A stretch of DNA of 64,000 nt, from assembly GCA_963667035.1 (NCBI GenBank), contig OY762964.1, positions 2,272,001 through 2,336,000 of the forward strand. The letters are read 5' to 3'. Origin of the DNA: Candidatus Cloacimonadales bacterium. GTDB taxonomy: Bacteria > Cloacimonadota > Cloacimonadia > Cloacimonadales > JAFGVF01. Positions 15,001-22,067 of the stretch are shown piece by piece. Every line of letters starts with the position of its first letter. Position 1 is the first letter of the stretch. Made by a program: the position numbers.

Positions 15001-18000
15001 ACAAACTTAGTGCAAGAATGAATAACATCCCCACGAAAAATATCTTTTTCATATATCCTCCATAATTATCATTATCCTTAATAGCAAGGTAATGAATTCA
15101 AGAATGATAGTTGTCAATATTTTTTATTGTCACATCCCGCAATATCACCATTTCCTATTATTACTGAAACATATAATTCCCGGTCTCTGAATAAATACAA
15201 TCATGATTATCATCGCCTTCTTTTCGCCAAGGTCTCCCTTGGGGTTTCCCTTGCCTCGCAAGGGAGACCCGAGAGTAAGCCAAGAGCAACCAAAGGGGAA
15301 ATCTGACAATTCAATGTTTTTCTCGTTTTATTCTCATGTTGCACCCGTGACTAACAAGCACAAAATCAAAACAAGAATGTCACAAAAAACTTACAACTCT
15401 CTTACATAACTATGTAAGGTTTATGCAAGGGTTATGCAAGAGTCTCGTAAGATGGATGTGGTTATTTGTCACGAGAGTAACACGAGATTGGAGGGATATT
15501 TATGGCTGAAAAACAGAATTTAATAATTTTTCAGTTGACTTGTTAAATTTCGTGAAAGTATTTATGCTTAAAGATTTAATGTAGGATAGTTAACAAACAA
15601 TATAGTTTATCCCTGTGAGGTGTATATGAAGATAGAGTTGATTGAGATTATAGATGAACATTTTCCGATGAAAATTGAAATGTCTAATATTTTCTTTGCA
15701 GGAATTACTTATCATAAAGACCAATTTCAGGATTATCCCTACACGGCAAGAGTTAGTGTCGATAATGTAGAAAAGACACTCGGATGCTTTATGCCGAATA
15801 TTGAAAGTGAGGATGAAGGGCTTGAGAACCTTATCCGAGAAGTTGAAAGACAGATAGGACTGGGAGAAAACAAACTGTTTCTTCCTAATGCTTATATCCC
15901 GAGATTCTGGTTTAATGAGGTATTCAGACAAATTAACCAAGCTTATCAGACAGAATTTTACTTCAACTTTGAAAATTCAGTACTAAAGAGTTGTGAGCTT
16001 AATAAAGTTAGATTAGGGGATAAGACAAGCTTTAGGAAGACATCACTCGGGGATAAGACAAGTTTTGATCATGCTAAGTTCGGGGAGAAGACAGACTTAA
16101 GGTATGCATCGTTCGGGAAGAATACAAGATTTGATTATGCTAAGTTCGGGGAGATTACTAGCTTTTGGAAGGCATCGTTCGGGGATAATTCAAGCTTTTT
16201 GAATGCATCGTTCGGGGATATGACAAGATTTGAATTTGCATCGTTCGGGGAGAATACTAGCTTTTGGAAGGCATCGTTCGGGGAGAATACTAGCTTTTTT
16301 AATGCATCGTTCGGAGAAAATACATACTTTGGGGATGCATCGTTCGGGGATGATTCAAGCTTTGCTAATGCATCGTTCGGGAAGAATACAATCTTTTGGG
16401 ATGCATCGTTCGGCGAGAATACTAGCTTTTTTAATGCATCGTTCGGAGAAAATACATACTTTGGGGATGCATCGTTCAATGGTGGTGCTGATTTTAGAGA
16501 TTCTGTTGCAAAAGGGATAAGCTTTGAGAATGCTACTGTTAACAAAGTGCTCTATCTTGGAAGAAATCATAATGATAGAACAGATAATCAAATGAGCTGG
16601 ATGAATTTAAAAGGATTAAGAGTCTATGGATTTCTGGAACCTGATTTGAGTATGGATTTCAAGAAAGAGTTGGCTCCTTGTGTGAAAGCTATTACAAATA
16701 AAGATGGTACAAAGGACCTAAATGCTATAAAAGAGACTTTCCATGTACTGAAGCAAGCATACAGTAAACTCGGGAGATATGAAGAGGAAGACTTGGCATA
16801 TTACGAGTTTAAGAGAGCAGAAAATAAGGAAAAGCGAGTGAAATATAAAAGCAGAAACTTCTTTGTTAATATATGGGGATATGTCTGCTGTGGATTAAGA
16901 ACCTTTACTTTAGATTGGTGTGGTGGATATGGAACCAAGCCTATTATGGTAATACTATTCATGCTTGGGGTCTACTTACTCTTTGCCTCAATATTCTTTG
17001 TTGCTCCTCAGTTAAACAATAAAGATATTATATGTGGAGCGGAAGATAAATACATAATACTTAACTTGAAGAATGAACCGATTAAACAGCCGATTCTGTA
17101 TGAAGCGGAATGCATTAAGGATTTGCCAATAAATAAAAGATTAGGAAAAGCAATGTACCATAGCGGAGTAACATTTCTTACTATCGGATACGGAGACTTA
17201 AGACCTTGTACAGGTTTAGGGATTTTCTTTTCAATACTAGAAGGTTTCTGTGGTCTTTTCTTAATGTCATATCTTACAATTGCTTTTTCTCGGAAGGTGT
17301 TGAGATAATAACAGAAGTGTTAATGATGGAGATTAATATTTTCGGATAGACGCATTAGGGATTAGAAGAGCATGTTTACAGTTGTGAGTAGAGTAATCTT
17401 ATTAAAGAGTTTAGGAATAAGATTGACATAAAACTTGAGATGGAAATGGTAGTTATGTGTGGTGATTACAGAAGAGGGAATCCGGTTCAAATCCGGAGCG
17501 GTCTCCGCCACTGTAAACAGCAGTAGTTAAATCTACAAGGTTGAATGTCACTGAGAAATCGGGAAGGCATTCAGAGCACCTGCTGTAAGCCAGGAAACCT
17601 GCCACGCAAATTAATTCTGAATGACTTTTCGGAGCAAGAAGTCACGGAAATCGGTATATGTATTACCCTTTCCTCTCCTTACTCCCTGTCATTCGCGGGG
17701 AAAAGGTTTTCCACTCATTCTCCCCGCATAATAAGACAAGGAATAATTATGCTTGAAATCAGAAATCTAAGTGCGGGATATCGTAATGAAGAGATATTAC
17801 ATAACGTCTCTTTTCATGCTGAGAACAGTGAGTTTATAGCTTTGCTCGGTCCAAACGGAGCAGGAAAATCAACTTTACTCAAAGCAATCATGGGATTTTT
17901 ACCTGCTTCCGAAGGTGCTATCAATATCAAAGGCAAAAACCTCAATGCTTGGAGTCGTAAACAACTTGCCTCAAAGATAGCTTTTATTCCCCAAGAAGCT

Positions 18001-21000: not shown

Positions 21001-22067
21001 TAACTAATAGCGTGTATAAAATAGATTTGAACACTAACAATGTTGTCGGAATAGTAGCCGTCGGTTCAGGACCTGCAGGACTTGAAGTTTATGATAACAA
21101 GCTTTATGTTGCATGTTCAGGTTCATATCCTAACTACAGTAATGCGGAAGTATCAGTGATTAATCTGAGTGATTTCACCTTGTCTCAATCAGTACCGGTT
21201 GAAGGTAATGCCCAGTATATTTATGCGATAGAGTCTATGATACATGTTGTATGTTCTTCGGATTGGGGAGCTAATACGGGAGAGATAGATATTCTTAATC
21301 CGGAAACGAATACGATTGTTGAAACCATACCTCTTGGTGGGTATCTAGGTAATGCTTGGTATTCCGGTAATGGTAACGTTTACGTTTCAGACGGTAACAA
21401 TGCTGGATTATATGCTTACAATCCCATAAGTTTTGAAGAAGTGTATACTTATGACAATAGCTTTTCTACATCAGGGTCTCTAGTTAGCGGAACTCCCGAT
21501 AAGCTGTTTATTGTTGACTCTCAATGGGGAGAAAACGGTGTTTTAAAAGTGTTTAATCTTGATGAGGAGTATCAAACCGAATTATCTGTCGGCATAGCTC
21601 CTACTGATATCAAGATAAGACCTAATGCTATTTCTAATGAGGATGTAGTGCAACCTCAAATTCAAGTCTCAGTGTATCCTAATCCCTTCGTGGATTCAAT
21701 TAATATAAAAACAGATACCGATTGTACCTTTATTTGTTACAATCTAAAGGGACAAGTCGTCCATAGGGATAAACTGAAATCCGGTAATACAGGATTAAAG
21801 ACAAGTAATCTTCCAAGCGGAGTTTATTTCTACAAAGTGATTGATGCCAATAACAATCAGACGACAGGAAAGATGCTAAAGATTAAGTAGAAGATATATA
21901 AGAGTTACTATTATTGGATTGAAAACTATTTGATTATGCAGGTAAGATAATCGGTTTATGCAAATAGACATGCTCGTTGGCAGAGACAGCTAATGAGCTG
22001 AATTATCTTGACAACCGAAACAACACTTAACAAATTGTTTTTCACGTGGGTGGTTAGCTCAGTTGGT

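Follow-up and report, generated by a model that had tools for sequence, protein, structure and literature searches.

A riboswitch-led operon of a Cloacimonadales bacterium encodes a putative BtuG-like propeller with a type IX sorting domain

The stretch of DNA analyzed here (the window) comprises 64,000 nucleotides of a Candidatus Cloacimonadales genome, which consists of one contig of 3,102,113 bp and is 98% complete. Window position 1 corresponds to contig position 2,272,001; genome-wide positions are given in contig numbering. At window position 17430-17620, a cobalamin riboswitch aptamer was detected on the forward strand, whose membership of RF00174 follows from a covariance model score above the gathering score (cmscan 92.0 bits versus 31.5, E 1.6e-21, model 1-189 of 189). 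It is followed by genes for a BtuD-type ATPase, a TonB-dependent receptor and a propeller protein with a type IX secretion system (T9SS) tail. The whole genome contains exactly three RF00174 matches, at 26980-27157 (+, 110.3 bits), 586376-586557 (-, 107.6 bits) and 2289430-2289620 (+, 92 bits), the last being that of the window; the one on the reverse strand lies upstream of a gene for a 672-aa fused SucC-SucD-type ligase. The three riboswitches and the gene order, both reported by the first-pass annotation, were confirmed by cmscan, the open reading frames and Pfam. As listed, the reading frames are located at 17545-18528, 18521-20662 and 20673-21890, all on the forward strand, and the first of them overlaps the aptamer. 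It is likely that the ATPase gene truly starts with the ATG at 17749, which in the sequence is preceded at a distance of 7 nt by AAGGA and yields a protein of 259 aa, the length of its relatives. The 128 nt between aptamer and this start codon (17621-17748, +), as read from the sequence, presumably form the expression platform, though no terminator-like site was called in them. A tRNA gene (22048-22121) ends the operon.

The third gene (g01790, P0001; 20673-21890, +) begins with TTG, 10 nt past the receptor stop codon, and encodes 405 aa. Residues 1-19 (20673-20729, +) resemble a signal peptide, a hydrophobic N-terminus ending in LNA and devoid of a lipobox cysteine, the first cysteine of the sequence being residue 46. 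Residues 18-320 (20724-21632, +) are predicted to form a seven-bladed beta-propeller. A linker of low confidence (321-327, AlphaFold2 pLDDT <50) leads to a type A T9SS C-terminal sorting domain at residues 332-403 (21666-21881, +; TIGR04183 6.6e-12), which was modelled as the Ig-like sandwich of this type (pLDDT 88-93) and matches PDB chain 8glj_D at 5.6e-05. In Pfam, the protein revealed the tail (PF18962, Por_Secre_tail, 1.2e-11 at residues 334-400) and a weak YNCE hit (1.3e-3). The BtuG-like fold proposed by the earlier annotation was reproduced with a deeper alignment of 39 rows (pLDDT 91.9, pTM 0.75). Foldseek searches with this model retrieved the chains of BtuG1, BtuG2 and BtuG3 (E 1.4e-18 to 3.2e-15, TM(target) 0.74-0.80) and the archaeal YVTN S-layer propeller 1l0q (4.0e-19), the next unrelated propeller following at 1.9e-12. 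VIA-align together with Foldseek also placed the BtuG chains at the top, level with 1l0q.

Sequence comparisons pointed beyond a shared fold. A single-sequence search with g01790 gave 1l0q as the best solved relative (4.3e-15) and no BtuG chain, and PF16819 (DUF5074) did not match g01790 at E values up to 0.01. P0005, which is 53% identical to g01790, carries a precomputed PF16819 match, and a true BtuG-like protein encoded in a metagenome operon matched this model at 2.2e-21. The profile of the propeller family, aligned by hhalign with 38 BtuG/DUF5074 lipoproteins drawn from riboswitch-led operons, matched them over the whole propeller (probability 100, E 4.4e-42, 296 columns), compared to 9.4e-34 and 208 columns for a generic YVTN set. 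Against solved chains, the same profile scored 2.7e-21 for BtuG1 and 2.3e-15 to 2e-14 for BtuG2 and BtuG3. On this profile evidence, the g01790 family is a distant homologue of BtuG/DUF5074. BtuG (PF16819), a surface lipoprotein of Bacteroides thetaiotaomicron that forms the lid of BtuB (PDB 3dsm, 8bmy, 8bmx, 8blw, 8p97) and has a very high affinity for cobalamin and cobinamide, is like g01790 a seven-bladed, acidic propeller; the two are homologous over the whole length, and in both cases the gene adjoins that of a BtuB-like receptor in a riboswitch-linked locus. The propeller domain of g01790 has a net charge of -26 (family median -24), and the available text of two studies describes the B12-binding face of BtuG2 as negatively charged, too (PMC6143338, PMC10404256). 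What separates g01790 from BtuG is its occurrence in Cloacimonadota, a gene that often forms a transcription unit by itself, with a riboswitch of its own, and a Sec signal combined with the type A T9SS domain in place of the lipobox cysteine, which is invariant in all 38 BtuG-like proteins.

The residues that contact B12 in BtuG, as listed in the available portions of 10.1101/2024.02.16.580637 and PMC10404256, were then compared. The aligned positions rank among the most conserved of the propeller family: N53 (100%), S67, N93 and N179 (97% each), S26 (92%), W285 (85%) and W198 (79%, with tyrosine in another 21%). Several contacts of BtuG2 are kept in kind, polar or aromatic (Q93 as N53, N107 as S67, S131 as N93, Q219 as N179, Y239 as W198 and Y335 as W285). 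On the other hand, the signature of the BtuG contacts (the E55-G56-x-F58 loop, the arginine of the S-P-R motif, Y316 and Y335) is largely missing from the family. G56 and F58 fall into a deletion of five residues that removes the NEGNF loop, and E55 is replaced by S26. The arginine, invariant in 38 of 38 BtuG-like proteins, has become Y/W95; Y316 corresponds to G267, W149 to leucine and W194 to threonine or serine. The absent lipobox, the deleted loop and the replaced arginine speak against counting g01790 as a BtuG in the strict sense, and any B12 would be bound in a pocket with a different lining. The same positions are conserved in 62 sequences whose fetched locus includes a riboswitch and in 58 for which it does not, and no position was conserved differently between the two sets.

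The receptor (18521-20662, +; 713 aa; Pfam Plug 6.3e-11) comprises a signal peptide, about 70 extra N-terminal residues, a plug and a barrel. Among its nine NCBIfam matches, the B12 receptor model TIGR01779 (TonB-B12) was best (5.2e-22, profile 67-610 of 614), with 78.1 bits far under the equivalog cut-off of 599.7. Seven Plug proteins are encoded in the genome, of which only this one is preceded by a riboswitch. A complex predicted from receptor residues 100-713 and propeller residues 18-325 reached an ipSAE of 0.82, while the best of three controls gave 0.00; since BtuB-BtuG complexes are already solved, the predictor may have drawn on such known structures to reach it. Of 157 solved complexes, 116 attain the pass mark, as do 2 of 215 mismatched pairs; these rates apply roughly here, since custom alignments were used. 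The runs shared at least 82% of the contacts, with a pLDDT of the partner of at least 88. In the model, the interface is very large, with about 120 contacts over all seven blades, and the top-face loops of all blades, including residues 68-71, 93, 110, 198 and 284-288, meet the receptor loops. The propeller may hence cap the receptor as BtuG does, with its pocket face towards the barrel. Lids of other TonB-dependent transporters of Bacteroidota, SusD, XusB and HmuY among them, are similarly surface proteins encoded next to the transporter that they cover, but they are lipoproteins, whereas g01790 would take another surface route in another phylum.

The propeller is widespread and was matched at full length in 130 of 151 Cloacimonadota genomes, nearly always as a single copy (G116 is the only genome for which two are listed). 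The suggestion that a BtuG-type system exists outside Bacteroidota was supported by 74 of 80 related loci that bear Cloacimonadota names. Among 124 non-redundant propeller loci, for which 6-7 kb of upstream DNA was fetched where the contig allowed, 64 have a riboswitch on the same strand, and in 70 the receptor gene is located directly upstream of the propeller gene. Riboswitches were called by Rfam on 60 loci (30 hits in 28 loci) and by a purpose-built nhmmer profile, which recovered 30 of 30 Rfam hits and none extra. Most of the 64 riboswitches (44) lie directly ahead of the propeller gene alone; nine precede ATPase, receptor and propeller, five receptor and propeller, four both the receptor and the propeller gene, and two are located between them. 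In the family of the window genome, RF00174 heads the operon in all five other loci of the first survey, and in two sister families it is found immediately before the propeller gene. Four genomes searched whole (G020, G033, G089, G012) contain a sole RF00174 match, which precedes the propeller gene, at a distance of 10 kb to 912 kb from the receptor orthologue.

A different arrangement was found in 36 seemingly riboswitch-free loci, where an Rrf2-IscS-NifU operon on the opposite strand is followed by ATPase, receptor and propeller. In five of five genomes of this isc type, the only RF00174 match lies 7-8 kb upstream on the strand of the propeller, before BtuF-like and BtuC-like genes. A further 18 such loci revealed a riboswitch in 17 cases by nhmmer and in 14 by Rfam at the gathering score, so that the order is riboswitch-btuF-btuC-(isc)-btuD-receptor-propeller. 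Since the opposite-strand isc operon intervenes between riboswitch and propeller, the propeller cannot be assumed to be under direct control of the riboswitch in most families. The propeller gene always stands in a B12 context, though.

The genome has two methylmalonyl-CoA mutase genes, and no match to CbiC or CobS was found in its single, 98% complete contig. Therefore, cobamides must be imported. The ATPase (17749-18528, +) is a type II ABC importer ATPase of the BtuD/FepC/HmuV class (ABC_tran 9e-34), with the heme ATPase as best NCBIfam model (246.5 bits, cut-off 261) ahead of FecE (240), corrinoid ATPase (235) and BtuD (156). The only FecCD permease and the only Peripla_BP_2 protein of the genome are encoded at 1918702-1920448, with no ATPase gene beside them. 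BtuC is the best NCBIfam match of the permease (201 bits), while the binding protein scores best against a heme family (116.7 bits). Judged by these two sequences, the substrate could also be heme or another tetrapyrrole, with the ATPase and the binding protein both closest to heme models. With BtuB-BtuCDF of Escherichia coli, the system shares the riboswitch, the TonB-dependent receptor, the BtuC-like permease, the BtuF-like binding protein and the BtuD-like ATPase. Unlike in E. coli, the receptor has a surface partner, and the importer genes are divided between two genome sites here and interrupted by the inverted isc operon in most of Cloacimonadota.

Taken from the sequences, the parts, their homology, the genomic linkage and the auxotrophy are apparent, and the following mechanism would connect them. 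When B12 is scarce, the riboswitch would permit expression of the operon, a direction of control that is presumed. The propeller would be guided by its Sec signal across the inner membrane and by its C-terminal domain through the type IX system across the outer membrane. On the surface, it would cap the extracellular loops of the receptor with the acidic top face and the central pocket towards the barrel, catch corrinoids and pass them on to the receptor. The ATPase of the operon would power the single BtuC-like permease and the BtuF-like binding protein encoded elsewhere in the genome. The operon is thus probably the outer-membrane half and the motor of cobamide uptake, and the propeller a counterpart of BtuG with a T9SS mount and a different pocket. 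That g01790 is this counterpart had been proposed by the first-pass annotation and is supported by the hhalign comparison, the receptor gene upstream, the riboswitches in other families and the predicted cap. Every part of that interpretation gained support independent of fold likeness.

Export through T9SS may be assumed from the sorting domain, and the protein would then presumably be fixed to the cell. As the T9SS component searched, SprA was found in a frame of 2063 aa at 2434071-2439020 (TIGR04189, 472.7 bits summed). Release, and not attachment, is the fate of many type A T9SS cargo proteins. It is conceivable, if unlikely, that the propeller binds corrinoids but is set free after export, acting as a soluble, hemophore-like scavenger that docks only to deliver. 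In 44 of 124 loci, a solitary propeller gene away from the receptor gene has a riboswitch to itself, which would fit a separately dosed diffusible factor. Also, no PorU was identified, although no search aimed at it was made, a tailed C25 peptidase near g00019 (31168-33909) not being recognized as such by NCBIfam. However, the adjacent receptor gene in 70 of 124 loci argues for a fixed partner, as does the large predicted interface, which resembles the stable BtuB-BtuG caps described in the accessible text of PMC10404256.

Rather improbable is a propeller that serves the receptor with a non-corrinoid ligand (heme, a tetrapyrrole or a metal chelate) or as a ligand-free shield or stabilizer. This assumption would explain the missing hallmark residues of BtuG, the heme-like scores of ATPase and binding protein and the iron-sulfur operon adjoining the three genes in most families. 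It contrasts with the sole cobalamin riboswitch that precedes the propeller gene alone in four of four genomes of this arrangement searched whole, with the isc-linked loci being headed by the only cobalamin riboswitch of the genome, and with the one conservation pattern common to both propeller sets. Moreover, there is no other candidate route for B12, as the genome has one type II importer and a single Plug receptor of seven behind a riboswitch. An ordinary YVTN surface protein (S-layer- or adhesin-like T9SS cargo) merely situated beside transporter genes would agree with the best single-sequence match and with the abundance of such propellers and tails, for which a first look at this genome gave 162 candidates (mostly tails), but is very hard to reconcile with a nearly single-copy gene present at full length in 130 of 151 genomes, a riboswitch and receptor linkage that survives several rearrangements, conserved blade-specific top-face residues and the complex score of 0.82 versus 0.00.

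The capture of B12 at the cell surface through transporters capped by BtuG is viewed as a competitive speciality of gut Bacteroides. In the accessible text of the respective papers, BtuG homologues and lipoprotein lids are stated to be confined, or nearly so, to Bacteroidetes (PMC6143338, PMC10404256, 10.1101/2023.03.17.533168), for BtuG after a search of 313 gut genomes (PMC6143338). If the reading of g01790 as a BtuG counterpart is true, the capture device would extend to a second phylum. Corrinoid binding by the Cloacimonadota propeller would make the device older or more mobile than has been assumed, functional without a lipid anchor and tolerant of a rebuilt pocket. Anaerobic digesters and sediments commonly harbour Cloacimonadota, and with methylmalonyl-CoA mutase present and CbiC and CobS unmatched in this genome, the supply of B12 would matter for the syntrophic metabolism of propionate and amino acids.

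The use of T9SS in place of a lipid anchor, as suggested earlier, agrees with the tail and the absent lipobox of g01790. Such a mount is not special to Cloacimonadota, because riboswitch-led operons of metagenome contigs also encode T9SS-tailed DUF5074, DUF4465 and DUF4430-like proteins. Together with an unmodelled jelly-roll family, these proteins are new candidate B12 binders. According to the available part of PMC11285876, Bacteroides species lack T9SS, which would be the reason why the capture systems studied are all lipoproteins. Somewhat more tentatively, T9SS may be a general, undescribed mount for the whole B12-capture kit (BtuG-type propellers, DUF4465 jelly rolls, DUF4430-like repeats and the new jelly-roll family) in T9SS-bearing FCB bacteria, the Cloacimonadota propeller being a near-universal, single-copy corrinoid-binding lid that has a pocket without NEGNF loop and arginine and constitutes the entire B12 regulon in two families.

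The putative jelly-roll family is represented in this genome by g00019 (27227-29413, 728 aa), which starts 70 nt behind the riboswitch at 26980-27157 (+). In Pfam, it matched the T9SS tail only (645-724). The proposal that g00019 is a second B12-capturing protein gained support from the riboswitch found ahead of it in three of three assessable Cloacimonadota copies, which makes it a plausible candidate. Its putative BtuH-like jelly-roll domain belongs to a large family that has over 1000 matches in the database, is not modelled in Pfam and is located behind riboswitches in 53 of 75 metagenome loci. BtuH and BtuJ (DUF4465, IPR027828; PDB 7biz) are B12-binding augmented jelly-roll lipoproteins whose genes likewise have a riboswitch directly upstream, and an invariant G-T-P-F stretch of the g00019 family recalls the conserved GTPAYF loop mentioned for DUF4465 in the accessible part of PMC13398666. 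By contrast, g00019 is T9SS-tailed and not a lipoprotein, and its domain was not foldable in isolation. PF14717 (DUF4465) did not match g00019 at E values up to 1, nor any of 34 family members at 0.01, while a real DUF4465 protein with a tail from a metagenome locus (L151) matched it at 1.7e-43. A further difference from BtuH and BtuJ are two N-terminal repeats, which in 10 of 34 relatives are related to DUF4430, the C-terminal domain of transcobalamin.

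A cobalamin riboswitch aptamer (RF00174, full model, 92.0 bits, E 1.6e-21) is located on the forward strand at positions 17430-17620 of the window. Three genes follow in the same direction, encoding an ATPase, a TonB-dependent receptor of 713 aa and the 405-aa propeller protein g01790 (20673-21890), and a tRNA gene at 22048-22121 closes the operon. The order riboswitch, ATPase, receptor and tailed propeller, which had been proposed in the first-pass annotation, was borne out by matches of the gene products to Pfam ABC_tran (9e-34), Plug (6.3e-11) and PF18962 (1.2e-11), the latter being a type A sorting domain of type IX secretion systems (T9SS) at residues 334-400. 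The ATPase belongs to the type II ABC importers. Its reading frame as called overlaps the aptamer; a start at ATG 17749, behind the motif AAGGA, gives 259 aa, which is the length of its relatives. Its top NCBIfam matches were heme (246.5 bits), FecE (240 bits) and corrinoid (235 bits) ATPases, all below the cut-offs. For the receptor, the top NCBIfam match was TonB-B12 with 78 bits versus a cut-off of 599.7. Between its signal peptide and the plug, the receptor possesses an N-terminal extension of approximately 70 residues (window 18581-18790, residues ~21-90), which is conserved in a 38-row alignment, has no Pfam match and may resemble the N-terminal extension domains seen in transporters of Bacteroidota. 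Just 5' of the riboswitch, on the same strand (15620-17308), a 562-aa protein with pentapeptide repeats and a C-terminal Ion_trans_2 channel domain is encoded.

The genome, whose named relatives belong to Candidatus Cloacimonadota, is a single contig of 3.10 Mb that is 98% complete. It harbors two methylmalonyl-CoA mutase genes, and no match to CbiC or CobS was found in it. Thus, cobamides are needed ready-made from outside. The sole FecCD permease (NCBIfam top match BtuC, 201 bits) and the sole Peripla_BP_2 protein (IsdE 116.7 bits, BtuF 74.8 bits) are encoded by adjoining genes at contig positions 1918702-1920448. Since no ATPase gene neighbors this pair, the ATPase of the window can be regarded as the component that completes the only type II importer as its third part. 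Among seven receptors with a Plug domain, only that of the window lies behind any of the three riboswitches of the genome. The T9SS translocon protein SprA is present.

The propeller protein is most likely a T9SS-exported, putative B12-capturing partner of the receptor, homologous to BtuG, the surface lipoprotein lid of BtuB in Bacteroides, and with a rebuilt pocket. Its N-terminus is a plain signal peptide and its first cysteine is residue 46, hence it is not a lipoprotein. In the AlphaFold2 model (39-row alignment, pLDDT 91.9), a seven-bladed propeller (residues 18-320) is joined by a flexible linker to an Ig-like tail. Foldseek searches with this model placed BtuG1/2/3 chains (E 1.4e-18 to 3.2e-15, TM target 0.74-0.80) on a par with 1l0q, a YVTN propeller from an archaeon, and ahead of the next propeller by five orders of magnitude. 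At the sequence level, the relationship to BtuG is visible with profiles only; a search of PDB sequences with the single protein yielded 1l0q and no BtuG. With the profile of the Cloacimonadota family, BtuG1 chains were detected at 2.7e-21 and BtuG2/3 at 2.3e-15 to 2e-14, besides 1l0q at 3.6e-35. As a reference, 38 BtuG-like lipoproteins with a lipobox and invariant cysteine were collected from metagenome loci that had been found with a domain of g00019, the second T9SS-tailed protein discussed below. One of them matched both BtuG3 (8p97_B, 1.3e-55) and Pfam DUF5074 (2.2e-21), which identifies DUF5074 as the BtuG family. The profile-profile comparison of the Cloacimonadota family with this set gave a probability of 100 and E 4.4e-42 over 296 columns, spanning the whole propeller. 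A generic YVTN set reached E 9.4e-34 over 208 columns, a weak baseline as only eight rows were available and five of these were nearly the same sequence. A strongly acidic character marks the propeller domain (net charge -26; family median -24 versus -14 for the BtuG-like set). According to the accessible parts of PMC6143338 and PMC10404256, the B12-binding face of BtuG2 is also negatively charged.

Fourteen B12 contacts of BtuG2, as published in the accessible parts of 10.1101/2024.02.16.580637 and PMC10404256, were mapped through the profile alignment. Six positions kept their chemical type, namely Q93 as N53 (100%), N107 as S67 (97%), S131 as N93 (97%), Q219 as N179 (97%), Y239 as W198 and Y335 as W285. 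S195 corresponds to residue 150 (G 56%, D 44%), which is variable in both families. G56 and F58 fall into a five-residue deletion that removes the NEGNF loop, and E55 is replaced by S26, Y316 by G, W149 by L and W194 by T or S. The arginine of the S-P-R motif, invariant in BtuG, has become Y or W; it is residue 133 by the alignment (S131-P-R) versus Arg135 of BtuG2 in the preprint. As judged from the profile alignment and the mapped contacts, the propeller is therefore a BtuG homologue in which the same pocket is strongly constrained and differently lined. The earlier reading of g01790 as the BtuG counterpart, made before contact residues had been compared, is supported by this homology; the BtuG contacts at the NEGNF loop, the arginine, E55, Y316, W149 and W194 are lost.

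The predicted complex of receptor residues 100-713 and propeller residues 18-325, each chain with its own alignment, scored 0.82, the best of three controls 0.00. Of 157 solved complexes, 116 reach the pass mark, as do 2 of 215 mismatched pairs; these counts apply only approximately here, because custom alignments were supplied for the receptor and the propeller. Contacts agreed between runs by at least 82%, with a partner pLDDT of at least 88. In the predicted interface, top-face loops of every blade oppose the outer loops of the receptor, including the pocket neighbors 68-71, 93, 110, 198 and 284-288. As BtuB-BtuG complexes are already solved, the score expresses likeness to them and is not a proof of binding. 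A closed propeller brings its two chain ends near each other, so that the C-terminal mount could, by inference, hold the protein much as the N-terminal lipid holds BtuG.

A full-length propeller was detected in 130 of 151 Cloacimonadota genomes (E 1.2e-98 or better; only for G116 were two listed), while 15 genomes gave tail-only matches and six, all small and from one family, gave none. Eighty related loci from species-representative genomes, retrieved with the propeller alignment, were Cloacimonadota-like by name or architecture and did not include a Bacteroidota BtuG. By name, 74 belong to Cloacimonadota, three to 'uncultured bacterium', two to Armatimonadota and one to Sphaerochaetaceae, in agreement with the suggestion that this type of propeller occurs outside Bacteroidota.

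Sixty and 80 propeller loci were mapped, corresponding to 124 without duplicates. In 70 of them, the receptor gene is the immediate 5' neighbor of the propeller gene, and 64 contain a riboswitch on the same strand inside the fetched stretch (6-7 kb upstream). This riboswitch directly precedes the propeller gene alone in 44 loci, ATPase-receptor-propeller as in the window in nine and receptor-propeller in five; in four, both the receptor and the propeller gene are preceded, and in two it lies between them. For the first 60 loci riboswitches were called with Rfam (30 hits in 28 loci), for the remainder with an nhmmer profile that recovered exactly these 30 hits. Four genomes searched as a whole possess a single cobalamin riboswitch each, which precedes the propeller gene, with the receptor orthologue 10 kb to 912 kb away. 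No cobalamin riboswitch was found in the whole genome of G003, nor in the fetched stretches of the G004, G018 and G069 loci. Mla-type genes lie upstream in G004, and the riboswitch-less locus of G018 contains a CRISPR array (L027:32-1256, 17 RF01320 repeat matches) 5' of the propeller gene. Contig ends truncate the loci of G060, G016, G134, G135 and G129, and the upstream stretch added for G022 also stops at the end of its contig. In G084 (L059/L121) the receptor gene is divided into two reading frames of 511 and 162 aa, which may be due to a frameshift or an assembly error.

Thirty-six loci are free of riboswitches within 6-7 kb, and in these a divergent Rrf2-IscS-NifU operon adjoins ATPase-receptor-propeller. 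This neighborhood suggested a function in iron or heme uptake, a reading that was dropped as the main rival because whole-genome searches and longer stretches of such loci revealed a riboswitch 7-9 kb upstream. Five isc-linked genomes from five families, searched as a whole, each contain one riboswitch, 7-8 kb 5' on the strand of the propeller gene, in the order riboswitch, BtuF-like, BtuC-like, inverted isc genes and ATPase-receptor-propeller. Among 18 further isc-type loci, nhmmer detected the riboswitch in 17 and Rfam, at gathering score, in 14; three aptamers are split and one stretch stops at a contig end. Hence, by these upstream riboswitches, the common plan of the phylum is a single riboswitch-headed btuF-btuC-(isc)-btuD-receptor-propeller locus. 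Propellers were also compared between loci with (n=62) and without (n=58) a riboswitch in the fetched stretch; the conserved positions are the same in both groups, none differing. In the family of the genome studied here, btuF-btuC has moved elsewhere and the riboswitch was retained before the ATPase gene. The isc inversion between btuC and btuD, inside the B12 uptake locus, is found in most Cloacimonadota families (L035-L047, L052-L057, L076-L147 and G019, G037, G010, G055 and G006). At L236, L238 and L243 (G112, G139, G043) and at L237 the riboswitch matches in two halves, ~190-260 nt apart; three of these are below the Rfam gathering score and the Rfam match of L237 spans 319 nt. In the split aptamers, a variable arm may contain a large insertion.

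The 728-aa protein g00019 begins 70 nt 3' of the riboswitch at contig positions 26980-27157, and a riboswitch directly precedes the gene in all three judgeable Cloacimonadota copies, confirming the direct linkage described previously. Pfam recognized only its T9SS tail, and T9SS tails were the sole matches of its profile to PDB sequences. Its AlphaFold2 model has a pLDDT of 84.3, and the best structural alignments, to two targets, cover residues 424-623. The C-terminal domain (~403-625) shares 46-59% identity with its counterpart in hundreds of T9SS-tailed proteins, some of them named Bacteroidales (1013 matches in total). Its N-terminal part contains two repeats similar to segments which, in 10 of 34 relatives, score as DUF4430; this domain is described in the accessible part of PMC4350170 as the C-terminal domain of transcobalamin-type binders. 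In Cloacimonadota the g00019-type domain is rare (4 of 151 genomes). The gene of a 492-aa DDE transposase (29573-31051) follows g00019, and the opposite strand encodes a T9SS-tailed C25 peptidase of 913 aa (31168-33909), which is not PorU by NCBIfam, the tail being its only match. This neighborhood, together with the rarity of the domain, suggests that g00019 was horizontally acquired.

Eighty metagenome loci with a g00019-type domain were collected, 75 of which were judgeable. A riboswitch lies upstream on the same strand in 53 of the 75, in 21 cases directly before the g00019-type gene, and an Rfam recheck of 14 loci, chosen as nhmmer-positive, confirmed all 14. The domain forms a putative jelly-roll family (L151-L230) without a Pfam model, occurring in ~325-aa T9SS-tailed proteins or in DUF4430-like fusions (e.g., L151:4929-5942, L171:6179-7156, L164:5019-5990). 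Its profile matches in these loci reach E 1e-112, and BtuB- and BtuG-like genes usually adjoin. Located behind cobalamin riboswitches in these 53 loci, it is a candidate for a new B12-binding domain family. One operon reads riboswitch, receptor, DUF4465 with tail, jelly-roll domain with tail and BtuG lipoprotein, another riboswitch, DUF4430-like domain with tail, jelly-roll domain with tail and BtuG. Riboswitch-led operons also encode T9SS-tailed members of known B12-binder families, namely DUF4465 (L151:3961-4944, 327 aa), DUF4430 (L171:4995-6182, 395 aa) and DUF5074 proteins (L169:3655-4938, 427 aa; L197:3682-4974, 430 aa), the DUF5074 propellers standing beside a lipoprotein BtuG.

In its accessible part, PMC6143338 placed BtuG in Bacteroidetes only (313 gut genomes, BlastP 1e-10), and the consulted portions of PMC10404256 and 10.1101/2023.03.17.533168 likewise confine BtuG or lipoprotein lids to this group. 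Cloacimonadota are known to possess T9SS genes, which Bacteroides species lack, as stated in the accessible part of PMC11285876. No description of T9SS-tailed B12 binders was found in the accessible portions of the literature on BtuG with T9SS, DUF5074 or DUF4430. Judged by titles and the beginnings of abstracts, none of the DUF5074 papers concerns B12 and none of the DUF4430 papers treats bacterial B12 capture. PMC12578637, which contains both BtuG and T9SS terms, deals with the BAM complex according to its title and abstract, and PMC13398666, on DUF4465, has no mention of T9SS in its main text.

The third riboswitch of the genome (586376-586557, reverse strand; locus 584234-586557) precedes a 672-aa fusion protein of the SucC-SucD type (ATP-grasp_2, CoA_binding and Ligase_CoA). 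One idea is that this fusion serves a putative B12-independent handling of succinyl-CoA when methylmalonyl-CoA mutase is without cofactor. EamA and YitT membrane proteins are encoded downstream of it.
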